Below, piece after piece: positions 13,286 through 60,086 of a DNA stretch of 64,000 nucleotides. Source of the DNA: Octopus vulgaris (Eukaryota). The number at the start of each line of letters is the position of its first letter. Position 1 is the stretch's first letter. A model generated the notes under the pieces. The model was given only the letters and a program-made list of their open reading frames with translations. It was not told the origin of the DNA and did not search any database. The position numbers were made by a program, and so were the translations under genes. The stretch is taken from assembly GCA_951406725.2 (NCBI GenBank), contig OX597815.1, positions 211,234,001 through 211,298,000 of the forward strand, written 5' to 3'.

Positions 13286-14490
13286 TTTTCATTGTTTGTT
13301 GGAGGTTATATATTGTAGTTCAACATAGGGCCAAATCTATTTGGTTGAGTATACACACACACATATACACACATCATCATCATCATCGTTTAATATTCGT
13401 TTCCCATGCTGACATGGGCTGGATAGTTTGATAGCATCTTATGAGCTACAGAGCTATGATGAACTCCAATGTTAATTTTGGCATGGTTTTTGTGCATGGA
13501 TGCCTTTCCTAATGCCAACCACTTTGCACATACACATAAATGCACTTCTTCCTTCAATATATGAAACTTTGTGAAGATGAGCATAAGCCCAAAATGCCAG
13601 GAACACTTCCACTACATATTTCCTTGAACATTAAACTAATAACTACATTTTATTTTCATTGTTTGTTGGAGGTTATATATTGTAGTTCAACATAGGGCCA
13701 AATCTATTTGGTTGAGTATACACACACACACATATACACACATCATCATCATCATCATCGTTTAATATTCGTTTCCCATGCTGACATGGGCTGGATAGTT
13801 TGATAGCATCTTATGAGCTACAGAGCTATGATGAACTCCAATGTTAATTTTGGCATGGTTTTTGTGCATGGATGCCTTTCCTAATGCCAACCACTTTGCA
13901 CATACACATAAATGCACTTCTTCCTTCAATATATGAAACTTTGTGAAGATGAGCATAAGCCCAAAATGCCAGGAACACTTCCACTACATATTTCCTTGAA
14001 CATTAAACTAATAACTACATTTTATTTTCATTGTTTGTTGGAGCTTATATATTGTAGTTCAACATAGGGCCAAATCTATTTGGTTGAGTATACACACACA
14101 CATATACACACATCATCATCATCATCGTTTAATATTCGTTTCCCATGCTGACATGGGCTGGATAGTTTGATAGCATCTTATGAGCTACAGAGCTATGATG
14201 AACTCCAATGTTAGTTTTGGCATGGATGCCTTTCCTAATGCCAACCACTTTGCACATACACATAAATGCACTTCTTCCTTCAATATATGAAACTTTGTGA
14301 AGATGAGCATAAGCCCAAAATGCCAGGAACACTTCCACTACATATTTCCTTGAACATTAAACTAATAACTACATTTTATTTTCATTGTTTGTTGGAGCTT
14401 ATATATTGTAGTTCAACATAGGGCCAAATCTACTTGGCTGTGTATACACACACACACACACACACACATAGTCATTTAATATTCGTTTTC
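13286..14490. repeat. Tandem array of a ~370-bp unit, three copies plus a partial
   Basis: Identical pseudo-ORFs at 13390 and 13762 (period 372), third at 14129; each unit contains a decayed RTE tail. Confidence 0.92.
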
Positions 14491-16545: not shown

Positions 16546-17302
16546 CTGTTGCAGTAACTGGTCCTGAAGTGTGATGGCATTGCTGGGACCTTTGGCACTA
16601 TGTCTATGTAACATGTCTGTGCATCTCTGTGCACGCAGAGACACACAGACACGTTCAAACACTGAGAAACAGAAAGACTAATAGGAAAGTAGATGCAGTA
16701 GAAGGAGTAATAGTAGGAGTGGAGAATGAAGGGAAAGCATGAGAGTGAGACAGGAGAATATGTATTGTTACTGAGAGAGAGAGAGAGAGAATAGCAAAAG
16801 AGTGAAAGAGACAGAGAGAGAAAAAAATGTCTATGGTTACTGATAGAGATAGAAAGATAGAGACAGAACGAAACTACTGAGGGTGGGGGAGGAGAAGAAT
16901 CAAAAAGAGGATAGCTGCTAAGAAGGAGAGAGAGGGGGGGAAAGAGTGATATTTCTATTATTGTGAGAAAGGGAAAGGAGAGAGAGGGGGGAAAGAGTGA
17001 TATTTCTATTGTTGTGAGAAAGGGAAAGGAGAGAAAGAGGAGAAAGAAGATATGAGAGTAAGAAATAGAAAGGAACAGACTTATTGAAAGTCGAAAGAGA
17101 TAAGGACATACTGATGTAGGGAGGTAGAAAGAGAGAGAGAAGGGTTTTTAGCAAATGAATAAATATAAAATTAATCCAATATATTTGTCAGACAAAAATT
17201 ATATTGGATATATAATTAGCCTCAATAATCTATTTTCCAAAAAGTTTTAATAACTTTTCCACTCACTGAAAGAACCATGAATTTATATGTATTATATACT
17301 AA

Positions 17303-17582
17303 TCTGTTGTGTCTGGGGAGAATCATTTTCTTTTTGTGCCTTATAATGTAACACACTCATTGGTAAAATTTCCACTTATTTCTTATTTTAATTTTCCTAA
17401 AATTTTCGTTGCGTCTTGCAACCTTTTCAACAGTTTTGACTCTTGAAAAGACTATTGAAAAGGTTGCAAGACGCATCGAAAATTTTAGGAAAATAAAAAT
17501 AAGAAAAAAGTGGAAATTTTACCAATGAGTGTGTTACATTATAAGGCACAAAAAGAAAATGATTCTCCCCAGACACAACAGA
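17303..17582. repeat. Fold-back hairpin (~130-bp arms, 16-nt loop) with HHR motifs next to the loop
   Basis: 17303-17434 is the reverse complement of 17451-17582 with few mismatches. Confidence 0.9.
17452..17488 (+). ncRNA. Minimal hammerhead motif with U3-A8 core (mirror copy at 17397-17433, minus strand)
   Basis: CTA-TTGAAAA-g-GTTGC-aagac-GCATC-GAA-AATT-T-TAG. The mirror copy has a perfect stem II GTTGC/GCAAC. Confidence 0.6.
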
Positions 17583-20500
17583 ATATGCTTCAACACACGA
17601 ACTCATAAAAAGAATCTTGCAAACCAAATCCAAAAACGAAATTACTAATCTGTATTTTCAGCTACTTTGACAAGGACACTGTAGTCTACATTTCATTGAG
17701 GAGGTTTAAAAAAAAACTAAAACAGATCCGCAGTTGCTTCCCATATTTGCTGGAATATCTATCCATCCATTTTCCTAGCTTTCTCTTCTTGGGAGGGTCA
17801 TAAGGGTTGAGTCCTCAGGCACCTCCTATACAGGGTTCTATCAAAAGCAACTGTTATTAAACTTACCTACTAAATTCCTAAGTGTGGACAACTAAGACTG
17901 GGGATATTTTCCTCCCATCTCTCTTGTGTCTACCCCTAGGACTGTTCAAGCTCCCTGACTATTCTGGCATGGTTTCTAAGGCTGCGTGCCCATCCTAACA
18001 CCAACCAGTTTGCAGAGTGTACTGGTTTACACAGCACCAGCATGGGTAGTTTTTACATGGCACCAGCACATGTGACTCCATGAGATTATGGATGCTCAGC
18101 TGGAGAAGGTTGCATTTTGGTTTAACACTAGCATCTGGCACTTTGGGCATCTTTAGCAGTGAACACTTTGTTGCAGTCAGGCCAGATTTTCAGCTTGAGG
18201 ATATCTTTCTCTCTCCCTCCCACCAATCTTGGATACCCTGTAATAGGTCATGGGTACACCCTTCATCATCATCATCATCATCGTTTAACGTCCTTGTTCC
18301 ATGCTAGCATGGGTTGGACAGTTCAACTGGGGTCTGGGAAGCCTGGAGGCTGCACCAAGCTCCAGTCTGATCTGGCAGTTTTTCTACAGCTGGATGCCTT
18401 TCCTAACGCCAACCACTCTGTGAGTGTAGTGCTAGCTTTTTATGAGCCAACGGCACAGGTGCCAGGGGAGATTGGCAATGGCCACGGTCGGTTGGTGCCT
18501 TTTACGTGCTAGCGGCACAGGTATCGCAACTACAATTTCCATTTGATTTTTATTTTGATGTTGATGTACTTGACTCAATAGGCCTCCTCAAGCACAGCAG
18601 GTCACCCTATGATCCAAGGTAAGCACAGCAGGCCGTCCTGTGATCCAAGGTACTTTGGATGGGCTGGGGCTTCTATGTGAAGCTGGTGCAGGAAACAGCC
18701 ATGAACTCACGTTATTTGTCAGGTCTTCACAGCCACAGCTTATGTCCAGAGATGTCGGTCAGGTTTAAAAGATGAGAAAATATATAATATTGTCTTTTCT
18801 TCAGCACATAATTTATGTAATCAGCATTTTAAGGCTCCCTGCACTGACTTAAGTGTTTCATTTTTCATAGTCTGAGCTTTAAAAATTAACAAAAGTACAT
18901 ATCCAAATGGATTACTGGATGATTTTATATTCTCTTTGTTAATTTCTATTTGTTTATAAATATGCATGCTTTAAGTCAGCCGTAAACGTTTTTGACTGAA
19001 TGCATCAGTCTATAGCTTTGTCATATTCCCATTTTCTCTGCAACAGCATTACATCATCTGTCATTTCCCATTTGTTACATCAAGCATTCTTAACATTAAT
19101 GCATATTGATTTGAACAATAAAATTAAGGTGGCGGGGTTAAGGTTATATATGTATGACAAATGGACGGGGTATGAAAAATGTTAATGGAAAAATGCCAAG
19201 TGCAATAACATGTGAGATGTGATGACAGCAATGAGCAAACGATGCTCTGTTTCGATCAAATGAAAGAGGATGAAAAGCCTGCTGGGTGTCACAAGATCAA
19301 CAGACAAAAGAAGAAAAGATTACATAATTTTGTTCAAGTTATATTCTTTCGTGGTGTGTAATGGTTGTAATTTCATTTTGATGTTAGTTTTACAGGGTGA
19401 TCCAAAAGTCCCTTTAATGTTAATATAAACCAACTAAAGAAACAACTTCCCAAAGGTACTGAGCAAAGGGTTACATAAATTATGTGCTGAAGAAAAGACA
19501 ATGTCATATAGTTTCTTCACTTTTTAAACAGAAAGGAAGGGAGTACCCATGGCCCATGACAGGGTACCCAAGATTGATGGGAGGGAGAGAGAAGGATATC
19601 CTGAGACTAAAAATCTGGCCTGGATGCAACAAAGTGTTCAATGCTAAAGACCATTTTCTTAACTACACAACCACATCTAAGAATTCAAAAAATTTTTGTT
19701 GTATATAACATTCTGGTGAGATACTACAATTAATATTTATCTCATACACTAGCAACAATAAATTGAGGCAATCACTTGATCCTTCAGTTTTTTATTTATC
19801 CACTAATGGGTGATCAGCCCCTTTGATTTGGGGGAGGATCAATCATTATGTTGGTTCCAGTACTTGCTTGTTACTAATTTTATCGATTTGACAGGATGAA
19901 AGAAAAAGTAGCCTTCAGCAGTATTTGAACTCAGAATGCAAAGACTTTAACTAAATATTGATTTCAAATTTTGGTACAAGGCCAGCAATTTGGTGGGTGG
20001 GGGTGAATTGATTACATCAACCCTAGAGTTCAACTGATACTTATTTCATCAACCCTGAAAGGATGAAAGGCAAAATCAGCCTCAATGGAATTTGAACTCA
20101 GAATGTAAAGACAGATGAAATACTTCTTAGCATTTTGCCCCACATGCTGGAACCATAACTAAATATTACCTATTTCTTTATTGTCCACAAGGGGATAAAT
20201 ATAGAGGGGACAAACAAGGACAGAGAAAGGGATTAAGTTGATTACATCGATCCCAGCGCGTAGCTGGTACTTTATTTATCGACCCTGAAAGGATAAAAGG
20301 CAAAGTCGACCTCAGCGGAATTTGAACTCAGAACATAACGGCAGACGAAATACCTATTTCTTTACTACCCACAAGGAGCTAAACATAGAGGCGACAAACA
20401 AGGACAGACAAATGGATCAAGTCAATTACATCGATGCCAGTGCGTAACTGGTATTTAATCTATCGACCCCAAAAGTATGAAAGGCAAAGTCGACCTCGGC

Positions 20501-37481: not shown

Positions 37482-37514
<33 letters not shown>

Positions 37515-37515
<1 letters not shown>

Positions 37516-37684
37516 AAGAAAAAAGCAACAAGAATGGATTAGTTGTTCAGTACAATTGTTTCATACGAAGAACAGATTTATTAAAAGCTGCAAAAATTCC
37601 AATTTTTGGAGCTTTTAATAAATCTGTTCTTCATATGAAACAATTGTACTGAACAACTAATCCATTCTTGTTGCTTTTTTCTTG
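37515..37684. repeat. Fold-back hairpin (~85-bp arms) next to (TA)n
   Basis: Direct reverse-complement match with a 2-nt loop at 37599-37600; contains GAAA-CAATTG-TA. Confidence 0.85.
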
Positions 37685-37806
37685 GTTATAATCACCCCAC
37701 ATTATTTTATGGTTAATACCATAAAGATTTCTGGTGCATCTAAGTTAAGTACCACATTCATGTGAATTCATTGGAACTCACTTGAATCTTAATTGTTTTA
37801 CTGAAA

Positions 37807-48859: not shown

Positions 48860-49011
48860 CTGTAAAGAGAAAAGGAAACAAGGAAGTTAGCAACAGAGTT
48901 AATTATAATGACTAATAGTCACAACCAGCTCCTTTTATTCCGTTTCCTGATGAGTGTGTAGCCCATTTGGGTTGCATGTTCATCTAATTGGTAGGTTTTA
49001 GGTTTCTAGAA

Positions 49012-49212
49012 CAGTGGTTTTCAACCAGGGTTCCGCCAGTACAGTCCAGGGGTTCCGCAAGAAGTTACAAAACTGCTAAAATCAGCAGTAATTTTTAATC
49101 CTCCTGTGCAGATATTTGTGCATAAAACTATTAAATTATTGCACAGGGGTTCCTCGAGCCAGTGGAATGTTTCCGTGGGGTTCCGCTCCAGCAAAAAGTG
49201 TGAAAAGCATTG
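49012..49212. mobile_element. hAT (Charlie-like) MITE
   Basis: TIR CAGTGGTTTTCA / TGAAAAGCATTG; perfect 8-bp TSD TTCTAGAA at 49004-49011 and 49213-49220. Confidence 0.88.
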
Positions 49213-50003
49213 TTCTAGAAGTTTGTGAGGTAAATGATTAAGTCAATGGTATCTCAAAACATGTTCAAATTCCGCCGAGGTCAACGTTGCCTTTCATCCT
49301 TTCGGGGTCAATCAAATAAGTACCAGTTATGCACTGGGGTCGATGTAATCGACTTAATCCCTTTGTCTGTCCTTGTTTATCCTCTCTGTGTTTAGCCCCT
49401 TGTGGGTAGTAAAGAAATAGGTATCTCAAAAAACTTTATGAGTTTTGAGAAGACTTCTTTTCTTGCACTATATACATAATCTCTATGTATATTGGAATAA
49501 GGCAGTATATCTTTCTACTCATTTGCAATGATAACAGGGTCACTGTCATTTGTTATCAAGGTGGTCTGCAACAGGACCTTATAAAAATGGTCCTTTTACT
49601 TATAAATTACAGCTTTGCATTCCTCTTTTAATGTACATTTTTCCATAATTGCATGCGTTAAACAGAAATTATTGAGGAAGATTTTTTACAACTGAGTACC
49701 CAACCGGTTGCCAACTTTCACCTGTTTCTAAGCAAAGTAATACTTCCTCCTAGCCAGAGACGTTTTTCATAAGAAGACTGGCAGAGAAAATCATTTGTAT
49801 GATGGTAACATCACGGATGTCATGATCATTTAGAACTACCAGTGATGTCAAGACAAGGATACACACAAACACACAAACTCTCTCTCTTTCTCTCTCATAT
49901 ATATATATATTTAAATATATATAATCGGTTGGACTCCATGCATGAGACTCCGGTCAAATGTTTTTGCATCTAGTCCTGCAAATTGTATTTCTAATATGAC
50001 AGA

Positions 50004-50067
50004 CCATGCTGACGAGATTGCAGTTTATCCTTGCGGATATTAACAATCGAAACTGATCAGTACATGG
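50004..50067 (+). ncRNA. Type I hammerhead ribozyme motif, intact
   Basis: CCATG-CTGACGA-GATTG..(loop with TATCC/GGATA hairpin)..CAATC-GAAA-CTGATCAG-TA-CATGG. Stem I 5 bp, stem II 5 bp, palindromic stem III ACTGATCAGT, GUA cleavage site after 50062. Confidence 0.9.
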
Positions 50068-50228
50068 GTAATCATTTTTATTTCGTATATTTTCATTTGT
50101 CTTGCTTATTTTTAATGCTTTGGTTTGTACTGAGTTTTTTATTTGAGAACATATTCTTCGTGGAAAATAGCGATTTGACGTCTATATCTGGCATGTTGAC
50201 CGTCCACTTTTAGTGGTCAGTCCTTTAA

Positions 50229-50286
<58 letters not shown>

Positions 50287-50446
50287 TAAAGGACTGACCA
50301 CTAAAAGTGGACGGTCAACATGCCAGATATAGACGTCAAATCGCTATTTTCCACGAAGAATATGTTCTCAAATAAAAAACTCAGTACAAACCAAAGCATT
50401 AAAAATAAGCAAGACAAATGAAAATATACGAAATAAAAATGATTAC

Positions 50447-50510
50447 CCATGTACTGATCAGTTTCGATTGTTAATATCCGCAAGGATAAACTGCAATCTC
50501 GTCAGCATGG
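50447..50510 (-). ncRNA. Type I hammerhead ribozyme motif, intact (mirror copy, sense to ADAMTS pre-mRNA)
   Basis: Exact reverse complement of 50004-50067 in the other arm of the palindrome. Confidence 0.9.
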
Positions 50511-50654
50511 TCTGTCATATTAGAAATACAATTTGCAGGACTAGATGCAAAAACGTTTGACCGGAGTCTCGCATGCATGGAGTCCAACCGATTATATATA
50601 TTTAAATATATATATATATGAGAGAGAAAGAGAGAGAGTTTGTGTGTTTGTGTG

Positions 50655-50686
<32 letters not shown>

Positions 50687-50841
50687 CAGGATAGGCCAAA
50701 GGCCATGAACCAAAACATTTGGCATTTTCTTTACATTATTGTCTTGTACTGTCTTCAGTGTTTTTTGTGAACCCTTAGATGTTAATAAAGAAAACATAAT
50801 TCATTTTGCTCATCATGTATGAGTACATGTGTATTTACCAT

Positions 50842-51213
50842 TATTACCTCTGCCTTAGCAAAGGTGGAGGTATTGTTTTCAGTCATGTTTGTTAGTTTGT
50901 TTATCTGTGGACAAGATATCTCAAGAACTGCCACATGGATTCAAATGAAACTTTCAGGGAAGTTTGGCCTCATGACTGGCACAAACTCATTAGATTTTGG
51001 GATCGATCTGGGACCGGACACAAATACTGGATTATTTTTCCTGTTTTTTTACTTAATTTTTGAGGGCTGTTGGGTTCGTTTTTAATATTCTCGTTTGTGA
51101 GAGTATTCGAGTTTATTTAAGATATTTTCTTTTTAAAAATCCTCTCTGGTTAATCATTGAGAGGACATTGGTGTTGCCTTGGCAGAGGTTTGCACTTTCT
51201 GAGTGGTCTTGTT
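50842..51213 (+). mobile_element. Non-autonomous Helentron-like (HINE-type) element
   Basis: 5' subterminal hairpin ACCTCTGCC..GGTGGAGGT, 3' subTIR GGCAGAGGT and terminal hairpin GCACTT..GAGTG followed by TT; homologous to 59683-60063 and ~48010-48112. Confidence 0.65.
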
Positions 51214-51285
51214 TTATTTATTTTACTTAATTTTAGAAAAATTCCAGGGCATATTACTTATTTTGTTCAACCCTATATGTATGTG

Positions 51286-51323
<38 letters not shown>

Positions 51324-52139
51324 TAAAAGGTTCCCATTAGTTTCATGGTTACTATTGCATTGGGCAATATAAGTGACTCATCAGAGATGCTGACCAGCAG
51401 AAACACATAACATTACTGATGGAGGTAAACATAGTCTTCATAGAATCTAGCGTAGCCCTCTATCTCATCTGTCCTTGTCGAACTATCCAACCCATGCCAG
51501 CATAGAAGAAGAACATTAAATGATGATGATGATGATTATATACATACACATATAAGTTTGTGTATATATATATTGATAAATGTATTCGTACATGTATACA
51601 AACATGTGTGTATGTGCATATTAATATTCACACACACATGGAATACATGAAGAGAATTTACATAAATTAATAGGACTAAAGAGAAAAACAATGAGATATA
51701 TCATTTTCATAAGAGTATTTAATCATTCAATATCCAAATGTATCTTTTGAATAAAAAATAAACTCATTGATAAATTGATAAATTATTCACAATGAATCAT
51801 ATTTCTAATGATTAATTTCTCAAAGAAACTGTTGGAGCTCTAGATTAAATAATGTACTGCATTTTGATGTGTACTTTACTTTTTGATTTGGAATCATCCA
51901 CAACTTAACTTTAACTTATCATTCCTTACCATGTCAATGATATAAATACCATTAATAAATTTGAGTTGATTCACACACCTAGATTTACATCCTCTAAACG
52001 TATTGCTTTTTGTGATGTGCATGTGTGTATGTGTGTTCATAAACATATGAGATTATAGACTATAGTTTCTTATAGAGATCCACTTGCACTGTAACAGTTT
52101 CATAATTGTTCTCAAATTACTCAGTACCTTAAGTAAACT

Positions 52140-52207
<68 letters not shown>

Positions 52208-52450
52208 GGAGGTGCATGGCTTAGTGGTTAGGGTGTCAGCACCATGATCGTAAGATTGTGGTTTTGATTCCAGGTCTGGGCGACGCGTTGTGTTCTTGAG
52301 CAAAACACTTCATTTCACGTTGCTCCAGTCCACTCAGCTGGCAAAAATGAGTAACGCTGCAATGGACTGGCGTCCCGTCCAGCTGGGGAACTCATACACC
52401 ATAGAAACCAGGAAACCGGACCCATGAGTTAGGCTTTAAAAGGGTGCATT
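52208..52450 (+). mobile_element. tRNA-derived SINE (V-domain-like 3' part)
   Basis: tRNA-like head TGGCTTAGTGGTTAGG..GATTCC; CAATGGACTGGCGTCCCGTCCAG; (TTTA)n tail. Confidence 0.65.
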
Positions 52451-53198
52451 TATTTATTTATTTATTTATTTATAAATATATATATATATATAATGTGTGT
52501 GTGTGTTTGTTTGTGTGTGTGTGCCTGTGTCTATGTGAATTTGTTCAGGTATGGCAGATGCAGGCACGGCTATGTGGTTAAGACGTTTGCTTCCCAATAA
52601 TTTAATTTTGGGTTCAATCCCACTGTATGTTGGCTTGGTTAAGTGTTTTCTAGTATAGCCCTGGGCTGACCAAATTCAATGGATTTTGTAGATGGAAACT
52701 GAAAGAAGCCCATCACACATGCACACACATATATATATATATATCATCATCATCATTTAACGTTCTCTTTCCATGCTACCATGGGTTGGACGATTTGACT
52801 GAGGTCTGGCAAACCAGATGGCTGCGCCAGGTTCCAATCTGATCTGGCAGAGTTTCTACAGCTGGATGCCCTTCCTAACGCCAACCACTCCAAGAATGTA
52901 GTGGGTGCTTTTACGTGCCACCAGCATGAGGGCCAGTTAGGTGGTACTGGCAACAGCCACGCTCAAATGGTGCTTTTTTTAGGTAATATTAAGGTAAGAA
53001 GAACTGATACTATTTATTGATATTAACCAAAAGACTGTGAAGTGATATAAAACAACTTTTGACCTTTGATGCAATATCAAGTTTCATTTAATAAAAAGAA
53101 CGTGTTATAATATTCATGAAACAATTAGAAAAATATAATGTTTTTATCTGCTTTTAAGAATAGAATATTTTTAAAATTAGTTACTAGTGGTAATAGTA

Positions 53199-53677
53199 TT
53201 GGGTTGTCTGGAAAGTTCATGCTGATTTATAGTAGCTTACCTTTCGATTTATTTTAGAACATGGTTGAGTCCATAAAATAGTATTTGACTACACCTCCAT
53301 TTAGAGCACAGTTTAAGCTATCGTTTCATGGAAGAAGATTTATGTTCCTATAACCTTCTGTTAATTCTGTAACCCTTTAAAATGGAAGATAAGAAAGTTC
53401 CACTTGATGCTTTGGGAACCAGACAAAAATTGCTGCAGCTTGGCTAGGATGTGTTACCCCACCCTCCATATTCACCAGATATTGCTCCTTCGGATTTCCA
53501 CTTATTCAGGTCTGTGCAGAATAGTCTTAATGGTAAAAATTTCAATTCCTTGCATGACATAAAAAGATACCTTGATGAATTCTTTGCCATATTTGGTTGA
53601 TTAAAAATGTAATGGCAAGTATTTATTGACCTTTTCCTTTCCTTTAAAACTCGGCATGAACTTTCCGGACAACCCAA
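53199..53677 (+). mobile_element. Internally deleted mariner DNA transposon
   Basis: TIRs TTGGGTTGTCTGGAAAGTTCATGC / GCATGAACTTTCCGGACAACCCAA; remnant VLPHPPYSPDIAPSDFHLFRSVQNSL (mariner YSPDLAPxD motif) preceded by an in-frame stop. Confidence 0.92.
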
Positions 53678-53889
53678 TGTATACAAAGGACTGGGAGATG
53701 TGGCAATTTGCTGTACTTGAAAAGATGCATCAAGCTAAGCAAAACCACTGTCTTCCATACATACCGGCTTGTCTCTTACAGGTGCTGTGTAAACACACCT
53801 ATTCTGGTGCTGCATAAGTGTACCTGTGCTAGTGGCATGTAAAAATCACCCAGTACACTCTGTTAAGTGACTGGTGTTTGGAAGGGCAA

Positions 53890-54282
53890 AGGCGGCGAGC
53901 TGGCAGAAACGTTAGCACACTGGGCGAAATGCTTAGCAGTATTTTGTCTGTCACTACGTTCTGAGTTCAAATTCTGCCGAGGTCGACTTTACCTTTCATC
54001 CTTCTGGGGTCGATTAAATAAGTACCAGTTATGCACTAGGGTTGATATAATCGACTTAATCCATTTGTCTATCCTTGTTTGTCCTCTCTCTGTTTAGCCC
54101 CTTGTGGGTAGTAAAGACATAGGTATTTCGTCTGCCGCTACATTCTGAGTTCAAATTCCGCCAAGGTCGACTTTGCCTTTCATCCTTTCGGGGTCAATTA
54201 AATAAGCACCAGTTACGCACTGGGGTCAATGTAGTCGACTTACCCTCTGTGTTTAGCCCTTTGTAGGTAGTAAAGAAATAGG
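53890..54282 (+). mobile_element. SINE family B with internal tandem units (others at ~8461-8695, 19820-20588, 21665-21880, 36645-36860, 42330-42770, 49263-49425, 56530-56980, 57768-57985)
   Basis: GGCGGCGAGCTGGCAGAA..GAGTTCAAATTCCGCCGAGGTCGACTTTGCCTTTCATCCTTTCGGGGTCGAT..AAGTACCAG; the core resembles the MetaSINE central domain (inference). Confidence 0.85.
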
Positions 54283-54669
54283 TGTTTGGAAGGGCATCCA
54301 GCTGTGGAAGCCATGCTATAGCAGACAATTGGAGTCTGGACAACTCCCAGCAGGCCAACTCCATGTAAATGACTGCAAGTTGGACAAGGACGACAATGAC
54401 AACATAAAACCGTCCAACCCATGCCAGCATGGAAAATGGACGTTAAACGATGATGATGACGTTGACATACATATATGCTCATGCATACATATATACAATG
54501 GTTTTCTTCGAGTTTCTCTCTATCAAATCAACTCACAAGTCGGAAACTGAAGAGTCAGAAATAGTAAAAATACTTATCAAACAAGAATAAACCACATATA
54601 AGTTTATGGAACATTATATAAGTTAGCATGGAAAAAATATTTCAGTTGATATTTCTAGTCAGGATATGT

Positions 54670-54789
54670 ACACTTCATGTGTGTGTGCGTATGTGTGTGT
54701 GTGTCGTGTGCGCCATGTGCGTATGTGTGTGCATGCATATGTGTATGGCTGTGCCTCTGTGAGTGTATGTGTGTGTGTGCCTCTATGCA

Positions 54790-54823
<34 letters not shown>

Positions 54824-55149
54824 GTTGTGTGTGCCATGTGCGTATGTGTGTGTGTATGCATATGTGTGTCTGTGCCTCTGTGAGTGTATATGCGTGTACC
54901 TCTGTGCATGCGTGTGTGTGTGTGCTTCTATGTGCATGTGTGTGTGTGTGTGTGTGTGTGTGTGCCATGTGCGTATGTGTGTGTGCATGCATATGTATAT
55001 GTCTGTGCCTCTGTGAATGTGTGTGTGTGTGCCTCTGTACATGTGTGTGTGCTTCTCTGTGGATGTGTGTGTGTGTGTGTGTGTGAGTGTTATATCATGA
55101 GATTTCGTCCTCTGTGAATGTGTGTGTGTGTGTGTGTGCTTCTCTGTGC

Positions 55150-55184
<35 letters not shown>

Positions 55185-55210
55185 TGTTATATCATGAGAT
55201 TTCGTCCTGT
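54670..55210. repeat. Compound (TG)n minisatellite
   Basis: Direct inspection; recurring GTGCCATGTGCGTATG and GTGCCTCTGTG units. Confidence 0.92.
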
Positions 55211-55854
55211 GATCTCTGGAGTCAAGTAGATTAACTAGTATCTACCCAATCACAATTTAGCAATTGTCTGCAATTAAAAGTCGGGTACGTAGTAATGAGC
55301 AATAGGGTTGATACTCTATTGATAGACACCTTTGATCATAAAAGCATTTTAAAGCAATTGACTCATTTGTCTGATAACTGACAGATCAAATACAAAAAGA
55401 AAAAGGAAAGACTTGTGGAAACAAAAGCTAAACGAAATAGTCTTACTGTAATAAAACGATGGAGTTATAATGCCAAGAGAGAGAAAGAGGGAGAGAAGAA
55501 GAGAGAGAGAGAGAGAGAAAGAGAGAGTATAACTGTTTCAAAGAGGTTAAAGAAAAACAAAAACCTAGAAACTGAGGAAACTTGTGATCGTGTACATCAA
55601 AAAGGGTGAAAAAAAAAACACACAATAAAATTCATAAAATTCGTGATTTTATCTGAAATCGTGCTTTGCATCATAATAGATTTATATCAGACATATAAAA
55701 CACAATTACTCTGTTATATTCACAACTGTTTTCTCATTATTTTGTGATATTTGTATAGATCTTCAACTATCAAAGTCTCTCAGCCTACATCTATGACCCA
55801 GTCACTGCTAATGTTTATGTGTGTGTATGTGTGTGTGTTTCTGTGTGTGCGTGT

Positions 55855-56295
<441 letters not shown>

Positions 56296-58842
56296 TTATT
56301 TTCTTTGTCATCGTCATCGTTATCATTTTAAATCTGCTTTCCATGTTAACATGCATTGATGATCCATGCTTATGACCTCTTTGCCACATCTCTTAAACTG
56401 ATGGGGGAAGAAGAGTAGGAACATCAGCTCATGTGTTATTCTGAGCCTGGAGACCGGGTTCAAATGGTAGCAACGTCATATATATATACATATATATATA
56501 TGTGTGCATATATTTATGTGTTTATGTTTGTTATTTCTTTACTGCCCACAAGGGGCTGACATAGAGGGGACAAACAAGGACAGACAAAGGGGCTAAGTCG
56601 ATTACATCGACCCCAGTGCATAACTGGTACTTATTTAGTCGACCCCGAAAGGATGACAGGCAAAGTCGACCTCGGCGGAATTTGAACTCAGAACGTAAAG
56701 ACAAACGAAATACTGCTAAGCATTTCACCCACTATGCTAACGTTTCTTATTTCTTTATTGCCCACAAGGGGCTAAACACAGAGGGGACAAACAAGGACAG
56801 ACACACAGTTTAAGTCGATTACATCGACTCCAGTGCATAACTGGTACTTAATTTATCGACCCCTAAAAGAATGAAAGGCAAAGTTGACCTCAGCAGAATT
56901 TGAACTCAGAACATAATGGCAGACGAAATACCGCTCAGCATTTCAACCGGCGTGCTAACGTTTCTGCCAACCCACTGCCTTATGTGTGTGTATGTATATG
57001 TCTGTCCTCCACCACTGCTTGAAAACCATTGATAGAGTGTTTACTTCCTCATAACATAGCGGTTTGGCAAATAAGACTGATAGAATAAATACCAGGCTTA
57101 AAAAACAGCTAAGTACTGGGTCGATTCATTCAACTAAAAATTCTTTAAGGTGGTGCCCCAGCATGGCCGTAGTCTAATGACTGAAACAAGTAAATGATAG
57201 AAAATAATAACTGATAGCTTCTGTTATCTATGTGATGAAATTATTGATTGAGATGGGTACTCCAAAAACATAGTACCCAGGGTAAAGGTAGGGCAGACAA
57301 AGGTTAGGGAGTTATTACCTTTTATGTTTCACTTGTTCCAGTGTTTGGACTGTGGCCATGCTGAGGCAATGCCTTGAAGGATTTAGTTAAACAAACTGAC
57401 CCCAGTATTTATTTATAAGTCTGGTACTTATTCCATTAGTCGTTTTTGCTGAACTGCTAAGTTATGGAGATGTAAAAACCAAAACCAGTTGTCAAGTGGT
57501 GGTGTAAAACAAACACACAGACACATATATGCTATACTGGTGCCACATAAAAAGCACCCAGTACACTCTGTAAAGTGGTTGGCATTAGGAAGGGCATCCA
57601 GCCATAAAAACGAAGCCAAATCAGACTGACACTTGATGCAGCTCTCCTGCTTGCCAGCTCTGGTCAAGCCAGAGAACCCATGCCAACATGGAAAGCAGAT
57701 GTTAAAGGAATATGATGATGATGATGATGATGATGTGGATGATGATATAATAGGCTTCTTTCAGTTTCTTATTTCTTTACTGCCCACAAGGGGCCAAACA
57801 AGGACAGACAAACGGATTAAGTCGATTATATCGACCCAGTGAATAACTGGTACTTAATTTATCAACCCCAAAAAGATGAAAGGCAAAGTCGACCTCGGTG
57901 GAATTTGAACTCAGAACGTAGCAGCAGACGAAATGCTGCTCAGCATTTCACCCAGCGTGCTAACATTTCTGCCAGCTCACCGCCTTTCAGTTTCTGTGTA
58001 CCAAATCTTCTTCTTTCTATCAAATTAAGGCTTCTTTCAGTTTCTGCCTACGAAATCCACTTACAAGGTTTTGGTCTGGTCCAGCGCCACAGTGAAAAGC
58101 ACTTGCCCAAGATCCTCACACAGTTAGACTAAACCCAAGACCCCATGGTTAGGAAGCAAGCTTCTTACCATGCAGCCATGCCTGCAGATTGTGTAATGGT
58201 TATGTATGAAGCACAATGATGTGGTATCATATGGTAGCGAAACAGTGATTCTGTGTATGAAGCAAGTATAAAGAAAGAATTGAGGCTGGATGTGTAATAT
58301 TTGCATTCATGAATTATCAAGCACAGATAAGCTGAGAGAAAACTTAGATGTAAGAACATCAGCTGTCATCATCATCATCGTTTAACGTCTGCTTTCCATG
58401 CTGGCATGGGTTGGACGATTTGACTGAGGACTGGTGAACCAGATGGCTGCACCAGGCTCCGATCTGATTTGGCAGAATTTCTACAGCTTGATGCCCTTCC
58501 TAATGCCAACCACTCTGAGAGTGTAGTGGGTGCTTTTTACATGCCACCGGCATGGAGCCAGTCAGGCAGTACTGGCAACGGCCATGCTCAAATGATGTTT
58601 TTTATGTGCCACCCGCACAGGAGCCAGTCCAGTGGCACTGGCAATGACCTCACTCAAGAGACATATAGAGGATGACATTCGGGTAAAGAAGCACAATGAA
58701 ATTAGTTGAAATGAAATTCTGAAGGAAGAGTGTATGGGATGCAATGCTGAAGACTGTTCTCAGACAGTGGGACTTTACAAAAGAGATTACAAGTGACCGG
58801 GACAATTGGGAAGGCATGGTTCTAAAGAAGACTAGATTAAGT

Positions 58843-59045
58843 GATGAGGAGGAGGTGAAGGAGGTGGAGAAAGAAGAGGAGGAAGTGGAGGAGGAGGATG
58901 GGGAGGAAGTGGAGAAGGAGGAGGAGGAAGTGGAGAGGAGGAGGAGGAAGTGGAGAGGAGGAAGTGGAGGAGAAGGAAGTGGATAAGAGGGAGGAGGAGG
59001 AGGAGAAGAGGGAGGAAGTGGAGAGGAGGAGGAGGAGAAAGTGGA
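58843..59045. repeat. (GAG)n-rich polypurine low-complexity tract
   Basis: Direct inspection. Confidence 0.9.
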
Positions 59046-59682
59046 GGTGAATGGTGATGATGATGTAGAGGAGGGGCAAGATGTAAATGACTAACAAGGA
59101 GGATAATCACAACATAAAAGGAGGACCAAGAAGAGAATGACTATAACGAGGCAGATGAGGAGGGGGAGGACAATGATGAAAAAAAGGAGAAAATTAGATA
59201 TGCCTCTGTGTGTGTGTGTGTGTGTGTGTGTATTTGTGTAAGCTTATATTTAAACTTCCTTGCATCATGAAATAAATCATACAACAAAGTTAACTGACAC
59301 ACCATCTGTTTCGATGACAAGTCTTCCAGTTGGTCCAATCAATGGAACAGCCTGCTTGTGGTATTAATGTGCACCTGGCTGAGTATTCCACAGACACACA
59401 CATAACCTTAACATAGTTTTCAAAGGGATTCAGCACGAGTCAATGGGACAAAACTGGCCCTATGAATTACAAGTATTACTCATTTTTTCCAACTGAGTGG
59501 ACTGGAGTAACATGAAATAAAGTGCCTCGCTCAAGGACCCAACACACCACCAGGTACCAATCTCATGACCCTATGATCCTGAGCTCAATACCTCAAGCAC
59601 AAAGCCATGTGCTTTCAAAATTAAACATAATGAAATCATATATTTATGTATTGCTTACAAGTAATAAATAATAATAATATCA

Positions 59683-60063
59683 AACACGAGCACTCAGAGA
59701 GCGCAAACCTCTACCAAGGCAACACCAACGTCCTCTCAACGATTAGCCAGAGATGATTTTTAAAATGAGAATATCTGAAATAAACTCAATTGCTCTCACA
59801 AACGAGAATACTAAAAACGAACCCAACTTCTCTGAAAAATTATGTAAAAAAAAAAACAGGAAAAATAATCCAGAATTCTTGTCCAGTACCAGATCGATCC
59901 GAAAATCTAATCAGTTTATGCCAGCCACGAGGCCAAACGTCCCTGCAAGTTTCATCCAAATCCATGCAGCAGTTCTTGAGATATCTTATCCATGGACAAA
60001 CAAGCAAACAAACAAACGCGACTGAAAACAATACCTCCGCCTCAGTGAAGGCAGCGGTGAAAA
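59683..60063 (-). mobile_element. Non-autonomous Helentron-like element, ~23 bp downstream of an ADAMTS donor site
   Basis: GAGCACTCAGAGAGCGC hairpin and ACCTCCGCC subTIRs; reverse-orientation homologue of 50842-51213. Confidence 0.65.
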
Positions 60064-60086
60064 TAGACAAGTAGTGTGAAACGTAC

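Follow-up and report, generated by a model that had tools for sequence, protein, structure and literature searches.

The closest described relatives of the locus reported here are the non-LTR retrozymes of animals (Cervera and de la Pena 2020, PMC7229834; Li et al. 2026, 10.64898/2026.07.22.740005, a preprint), the hammerheads in the pseudo-LTRs of Penelope-like elements (PLEs; Cervera and de la Pena 2014, PMC4209133), and the Neptune-type, (TA)n-biased PLEs with their non-autonomous partners (Craig et al. 2021, PMC8557442; Arkhipova et al. 2013, PMC3846280). Animal non-LTR retrozymes are described in these texts as short non-coding units of low GC content with one type I hammerhead each, found as head-to-tail repeats with two ribozymes in some copies and mostly as solo derivatives, and the repeat family to which our locus belongs shares all of these features. 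The preprint places about 43% of Xenopus retrozyme copies in introns. The family is unlike them in having a unit of 526 nt against ~170-400 nt (a descriptive range, PMC7229834), in showing no array of two full units in the loci examined, and in its frequent head-to-head inversions and (TA)n targeting, which are PLE traits.

With the PLE pseudo-LTR hammerheads of PMC4209133 the motif shares type I architecture, a 5-bp stem I, a small palindromic stem III and a dimer-type character, but its stem III palindrome is longer (10 nt), its stem II carries an inner hairpin, and no ORF-bearing parent was found. Opposite-strand hammerhead pairs are already known: that paper describes them 100-700 bp apart in Schistosoma PLE remnants, in a text that does not state their orientation. 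The family has the 5' truncation, partial tandems, inverted 5'-truncated copies, microsatellite target and lack of a clear target-site duplication described for (TA)n-biased PLEs (PMC8557442, PMC3846280), and its two preferred 3' ends resemble their optional tail. It differs from them in that its alternative 3' ends are ~100 nt apart rather than separated by a tail of 30-40 bp, in having no sequence link to the PLEs sampled, and in that our locus is tail-to-tail and includes flanking sequence, whereas head-to-head is the norm.

A fourth comparison is with snap-back synthesis-dependent microhomology-mediated end joining (PMC5728401), in which a 3' end folds on an inverted repeat, copies itself and rejoins through microhomology, leaving an inverted repeat. 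According to that text, TA/AT is among the commonest inverted repeats at which snap-back is primed. The caveat is one of length, since the repeats reported there run from a few to ~30 nt and our locus would require 374 nt to be copied, so that the enzyme would need more processivity. Our reading, to which we give a probability of a little under 0.6, is that the locus is a truncated retrozyme-like copy that was later doubled by fold-back copying at (TA)n, leaving on each strand a lone ribozyme that is predicted not to cut. This adds, with modest weight, a (TA)n-targeting, 526-nt family of dimer-type hammerhead retrozymes with good covariation, together with one tidy case of a post-insertion copy-back palindrome, an uncommon secondary rearrangement. 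Our literature search found no earlier description of the 526-nt family; supplements, which lie outside such a search, may list it.

The palindrome and its host gene

The window is the whole 64-kb stretch of DNA that was analysed, and its features are collected in Table 1. The initial annotation, made by reading the sequence alone, had described a palindrome of ~800 bp with a ribozyme motif on each strand. This is present, with two reverse-complementary arms and one motif per arm, and it turns on a (TA)n hinge as described, although the hinge is 50 nt long and not ~48 nt. The arms differ at three places: an indel of 2 nt lies near 49944 / 50570, a substitution sets T at 49959 against G at 50555, and one T is extra at the edge of the hinge. 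Element sequence makes up ~313 of the 374 bases of each arm, comprising unit positions ~227-526 and the first ~14-17 of the next unit. When the arm was compared with 30 loci by blastn, its positions 1-60 (segment X) were matched in full only at the window's own locus, and sequence other than X lies upstream of the family copies. The order at the locus is flank X, element, (TA)n, inverted element, inverted X and (TA)n. Palindromes with short spacers are not rare: six of at least 92% identity occur in 264 kb, and the window palindrome is the longest of them.

Table 1. Positions of the palindrome, its hammerhead motifs and the host intron within the window
Feature	Position	Strand	Remarks
Host intron	48860..60086	-	GT..AG, 11.2 kb; splits the spacer domain of an ADAMTS-family gene
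Left arm	49859..~50231		374 bases; reverse complement of right arm
Outer arm segment X	49859..49918	+	Mixed (CA)/(CT)/(TA) microsatellite; flanking sequence outside the repeat family; copied along with the element
Left arm, element part	49919..50231	+	Copy from the 526-nt family, truncated at 5'; abuts (TA)n at its 3' end; bears both arm-specific derived changes
Type I hammerhead motif	50004..50067	+	Predicted cut after 50062; antisense to host gene
Its stem I	50004-50008/50063-50067	+
Its core	50009-50015	+
Its stem II	50016-50020/50044-50048	+
Its GAAA	50049-50052	+
Its palindromic stem III	50052-50061	+
Hinge (TA)25	50232..50281	.	50 nt; insertion target of the element; self-complementary, putative fold-back point
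Right arm	~50282..50657		374 bases; reverse complement of left arm
Right arm, element part	50282..50597	-	Inverted element copy; family state at both arm-specific differences
Second, identical hammerhead motif	50447..50510	-	Core at 50505; predicted cut at 50452; sense to host pre-mRNA
Inverted copy of flank X	50598..50657	-
Distal (TA)16 run	50655..50686	.	Inverted copy rejoins right flank here, putatively by TA microhomology

The palindrome had been placed inside an ADAMTS intron, and the analysis of the host gene agreed with this. Minus-strand exons matched the Pfam domains ADAMTS_spacer1 (E 8e-22) and TSP1, and the reading frame continues across the GT..AG intron; from this continuous frame we infer that no further exons lie within 60086-48860. 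The host exons and intron are on the minus strand, and the minus hammerhead copy is indeed sense to the host pre-mRNA, as had been claimed. A motif scan located further ADAMTS-like exons, apparently cysteine-rich and TSP1-like, ~17 and ~55 kb beyond the window. No reprolysin domain was detected, either as a PF01421 match on the contig (17 candidates) or as a zinc motif in 264 kb; the missing metalloprotease exons may be short or further out. The host gene is a member of the ADAMTS family, and presumably encodes a protease.

The hammerhead motif and the 526-nt repeat family

Scanning both strands of the window with a hammerhead pattern gave exactly two matches, one in each arm. The motif has the CUGANGA core, GAAA and NUH arranged around three stems with an open-ended stem I that define type I. 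Each of the parts named at annotation was found, namely the CCAUG/CAUGG stem I, CUGACGA, a 5-bp stem II with an inner hairpin, GAAA, ACUGAUCAGU and GUA, and the assignment to type I, with a palindromic stem III as in Penelope elements and retrozymes, was borne out. The search with hammerhead models that had been proposed was run against Rfam and listed no hammerhead family, whether 10 kb was searched at E<=1 or 161 nt at E<=10; the long insert in stem II is likely behind this. MicroRNA matches in the same Rfam scans were set aside, as they fell below gathering scores and reflect the hairpin.

In place of an Rfam match, the motif is supported by stem covariation among genomic copies, another check that had been proposed. 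The set comprised 36 aligned copies, obtained from 40 motif copies by removing L019, L020 and L024 (identical to kept rows), L069 and the second L005 copy and adding the window. In these, 96.8% of 468 cells are paired and 6 of the 13 pairs have changed on both sides, counts to be read in the light of the copies being related and the cells not being independent events. The shuffle control gave 0/500 for cells paired, and slid controls reached 25-33%; one of five shuffle measures, that of further pair types, was not above control (496/500). The stem III palindrome varies in sequence yet stays self-complementary in five of the six motif variants folded, the sixth having one extra base. An extra U that lengthens this palindrome to 11 nt was seen in a subfamily comprising L012, L017-L020, L024, L025, L027, L030 and L073, in which a monomer stem of 4 bp with a 3-nt loop could form, with a predicted probability of only 0.06.

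The annotation had also suggested a genome-wide search with the arm for a parent PLE or tandem retrozyme forms, and a dispersed family that includes tandem forms was found. Searching the genome assembly (2.8 Gb, 227 contigs), whose repeats appear cephalopod-like, with the arm yielded 2592 candidates; of these 40 were scored, and over the length of the query the top non-self copies had 92-96% identity. A 17-nt end motif occurred in exact form 726 times against once in the control, and for the hammerhead pattern that marks the young subfamily there were 46 exact matches against none. The unit, mapped on a natural unit from L025, is 526 nt long and carries one type I hammerhead. The copies are permuted, cover less than two units and are cut short on the 5' side; their 3' ends lie directly on (TA)n and mostly near unit position 14-33 or 126. 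Two hammerheads stand head-to-tail, ~510-540 nt apart, in L089 and L105, each under two full units (13 overlapping loci were removed before the motif scan that gave L089); a region is covered twice in L074, L081 and L091, and the window locus itself is not tandem. A single 526-nt unit folded as a circle gave a suggestive z of -3.7 in comparison with 40 shuffles. Among 60 family loci there was no credible ORF in the unit and none shared upstream of the copies. As judged from its sequence, this dispersed non-coding family has the anatomy of a non-autonomous Penelope-like element, that is, of a non-LTR retrozyme.

An older, 77%-identical copy was observed at L105:8029-8600 (G000:C2 ~211386000), apparently in the same host gene and antisense to it. 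Its two tandem hammerheads are 508 nt apart, and all three stems have changed with pairing kept; this is a natural dimer.

Elements with RT and GIY-YIG are present in the genome, with frames of up to 781 aa, and those examined end on (TA)n. One of them, L037, has a CX4CXXC linker of the kind that PMC8557442 ties to Neptune and Naiad. Open 781-aa frames occur in many of the autonomous PLE copies, suggesting, at the level of sequence, recent activity. A parent PLE for the family, which the annotation had expected genome searches to reveal, was not found in the loci examined. Among the blastn matches listed for 30 GIY-YIG loci (30 of 148 scored, from 6136 candidates) there was no match to the unit other than microsatellite and SINE sequence; ORF scans of the 60 family loci and of 20 further 8-kb loci gave no parent; and tblastn of one PLE protein against the family loci gave two matches, neither placed upstream as a parent would be. 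At L085 a PLE fragment lies on the opposite strand beyond the (TA)n of the family copy, and not upstream. Because no sampled PLE is linked to the unit by sequence, the mobiliser can only be inferred; the unit would have been mobilised in trans by a (TA)n-targeting PLE.

Two further observations concern hammerheads near PLEs. Autonomous PLEs at L037, L038, L040-L042, L044, L045, L049 and L050 carry, close to the 3' ends that abut (TA)n, a hammerhead-like motif with a U3-A8 core variant. At L039:120-540 a PLE is adjoined by a head-to-head pair of hammerheads from a different family, in which stem III is palindromic and the stem II loop is long.

Origin of the palindrome

The initial annotation had linked the palindrome to the inverted pLTR structures of PLEs, and the orientation of the copies spoke against this. 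Neighbours within 1 kb, taken for the first 100 of the 726 listed ends, comprised 24 head-to-head, 3 tandem and 1 tail-to-tail; head-to-head orientation thus accounts for 24 of 25 close inverted pairs, and the sole tail-to-tail case among those listed is the window locus. Head-to-head is likewise given in PMC3846280 as the usual form of PLE inversion. An inverted pLTR would be head-to-head, with 3' ends outward and element sequence only, whereas in the window palindrome the 3' ends point inward and 60 bases of flank are included in both arms.

For the comparison of the arms with the family, and for that of TA runs below, 16 overlapping or duplicate loci were removed. Two changes, at 50159/50355 and 50190/50324, occur in both arms and are absent from 45/45 other copies; two more that the arms have in common are rare (9/45 and 5/45 other copies). 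The nearest other copy is 97.5% identical, and the arms are 99% identical to each other. The 5' junction, the 60-base flank and the two private changes are common to both arms, and therefore we consider that the arms descend from one copy. Together with the tail-to-tail orientation, the duplicated flank and the shared private changes point to a later doubling of one resident copy.

The order of the locus matches the product expected when a 3' end folds on (TA)n, copies itself and rejoins by TA microhomology. A DNA break would have occurred in the (TA)n adjoining the resident copy, and the broken 3' end would have snapped back and primed on the self-complementary TA run. Synthesis would then have proceeded through element and flank, copying 374 bases, and the new end would have rejoined the right-hand (TA)n through TA microhomology.

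Exact TA-hinged tail-to-tail joints number six in the family, at four loci: the palindrome in the window, the short copy-backs L062 and L063, and the array L064-L066. This array (G000:C27:9275700-9276980) consists of five head-to-head family palindromes with short (TA)n between them, at a period of ~233 nt. Among 861 unselected TA runs over 613 kb we found four distinct hinged palindromes with arms of 30-55 bp. One, the only case tested for single copy, matched only itself in the genome: this is an element-free palindrome of 138 bp at L111:9703-9839 (G000:C2:211447703-211447839), 160 kb away, with 55-bp arms and a TA/CA-rich hinge. Two resemble the ends of other repeats. Tail-to-tail TA joints recur at element ends, which would fit element machinery too. 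We favour DNA snap-back over an RNA route, the evidence separating the two being thin.

In that RNA route, which we regard as possible but clearly the less likely, the doubling would be an RNA-templated copy-back in cis. A PLE protein would reverse-transcribe a read-through plus-strand RNA of X, element and (UA)n and insert the copy beside its source. Synthesis would start at a nick in the (TA)n tail belonging to the element, or else the template would prime itself, and the product would be the same tail-to-tail palindrome. PMC3846280 notes that a sense template self-primed at its 3' end would yield tail-to-tail repeats, and PMC11167929 proposes that a PLE RNP nicks AT-rich DNA, including its own pLTR, and that uncleaved RNA is used. 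PLEs with 781-aa frames and ending on (TA)n are present; the copy extends 200 nt past the cut site, as fits an uncut monomer; and the tail-to-tail TA joints recur not only at family ends but apparently at those of other repeats. Such a route would, however, require an antisense transcript starting at or before 49859. The element-free single-copy palindrome has a similar hinge, and the rates are of the same order, six joints per 726 family ends and four per 861 unselected TA runs, counted by criteria that differ. A bolder form of the idea, with slightly poorer prospects still, is that the locus is the fossil of a Penelope-type RT that copied a read-through transcript into its own (TA)n tail, a predicted product that is rarely seen. 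If true, host flank would be duplicated in cis by this mechanism and introns would acquire long dsRNA hairpins, it would give the family a self-made source for small-RNA silencing or editing, and the RNA-templated route would bear on how PLEs make inverted structures.

We also considered whether only one arm is real, with the second created where long reads, or the assembly graph, folded back at (TA)n. The (TA)n is self-complementary, PLE tandem and inverted structures are described as troubling assemblies (PMC8557442), and none of the mapped data bridged the distal junction, two raw-read runs having given no aligned reads and the short contigs of two further sets having been mapped with the repeat letters 50591-50691 excluded. 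The annotation had argued from the small arm differences against such an artefact, and as far as the sequence can tell the argument gains strength from their direction: at each of the two inner differences the left arm carries the derived state and the right arm that of the family, seen in 37-39/40 and 41/42 copies. One of the two is a CpG transition. TA-hinged palindromes are also rare in the assembly and not systematic. We thus consider an artefact improbable.

Predicted RNA fate and the weaker alternatives

The annotation had called the hammerheads intact, and this is true of the motif; activity as a monomer, as far as folding predicts, does not follow from it. In monomer folding the active fold lies at -10.1 kcal/mol against an MFE of -14.4 kcal/mol, 4.3 apart, with a stem III probability of 0.00, and the best predicted fold pairs the CUGA core with the stem III loop. 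Two copies folded together are predicted to form a 10-bp stem III. These results suggest a dimer-type ribozyme whose monomer is predicted to be unable to cut. In the text of PMC4209133 the minimal PLE hammerhead shows no monomer cleavage. Counting against a dimer-only reading, PMC7229834 reports efficient monomer cleavage by many invertebrate retrozyme hammerheads; PMC11167929 suggests that the PLE protein can assist cleavage.

For minus-strand transcripts of nine lengths, the predicted stem III probability was at most 0.03 throughout, and stems I and II were lost once the antisense arm was transcribed. There is one sense ribozyme per transcript, its partner being on the other strand, so that a dimer cannot form in cis. 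The kinetic competition between self-cleavage and dsRNA formation that had been proposed is for these reasons unlikely to be a real contest. The long dsRNA hairpin in the same proposal did appear in the predictions, with a folding energy of -680 kcal/mol. The host pre-mRNA would form this hairpin of ~374 bp without cleavage in cis, and as an intronic structure it is a plausible substrate for editing or for small RNAs.

A working bidirectional switch, in which cleavage takes place within seconds unless the antisense arm overtakes it and in this way tunes splicing of the host ADAMTS gene, seems to us very unlikely. The core is unmutated in both motifs, the minus motif is sense to the pre-mRNA with ~380 nt between ribozyme and antisense, and other family RNAs could supply trans partners via the stem III palindrome. 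An intact core is nonetheless what a young copy should have, the locus showed no sign of selection, and the folding of the nine transcripts stands against a switch. A regulatory role for the host gene has little support; rather than a gene switch, the locus is probably an ordinary scar in the genome.

Least credible of all is that two independent insertions entered one (TA)n from opposite sides, or that the locus is a normal PLE inverted-pLTR product: tail-to-tail pairs do occur, as at L016, where a 72%-identical older copy faces a young one, and inverted pieces are very common in the family, but the identical 5' truncation point and the shared private changes speak against two insertions, which the shared 60-bp flank largely refutes, and in inversions of the family the 3' ends face outward (24 vs 1). 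The reading of the TA-flanked palindrome as a MITE was dropped, there being no second copy with the X-bearing end among the scored matches and the outer ends being plain microsatellite.

Near-perfect palindromes of 180-300 bp, almost spacerless and several of them flanked by (TA)n, were also seen at 17300-17585 and 37509-37690 of the window and at G000:C2 ~211342340 and ~211411843; these are probably head-to-head products of other families. At 13286-14466 of the window there is a tandem repeat with a period of 372, 3.2 copies and 96% matches, and the hammerhead scan found no motif inside it.
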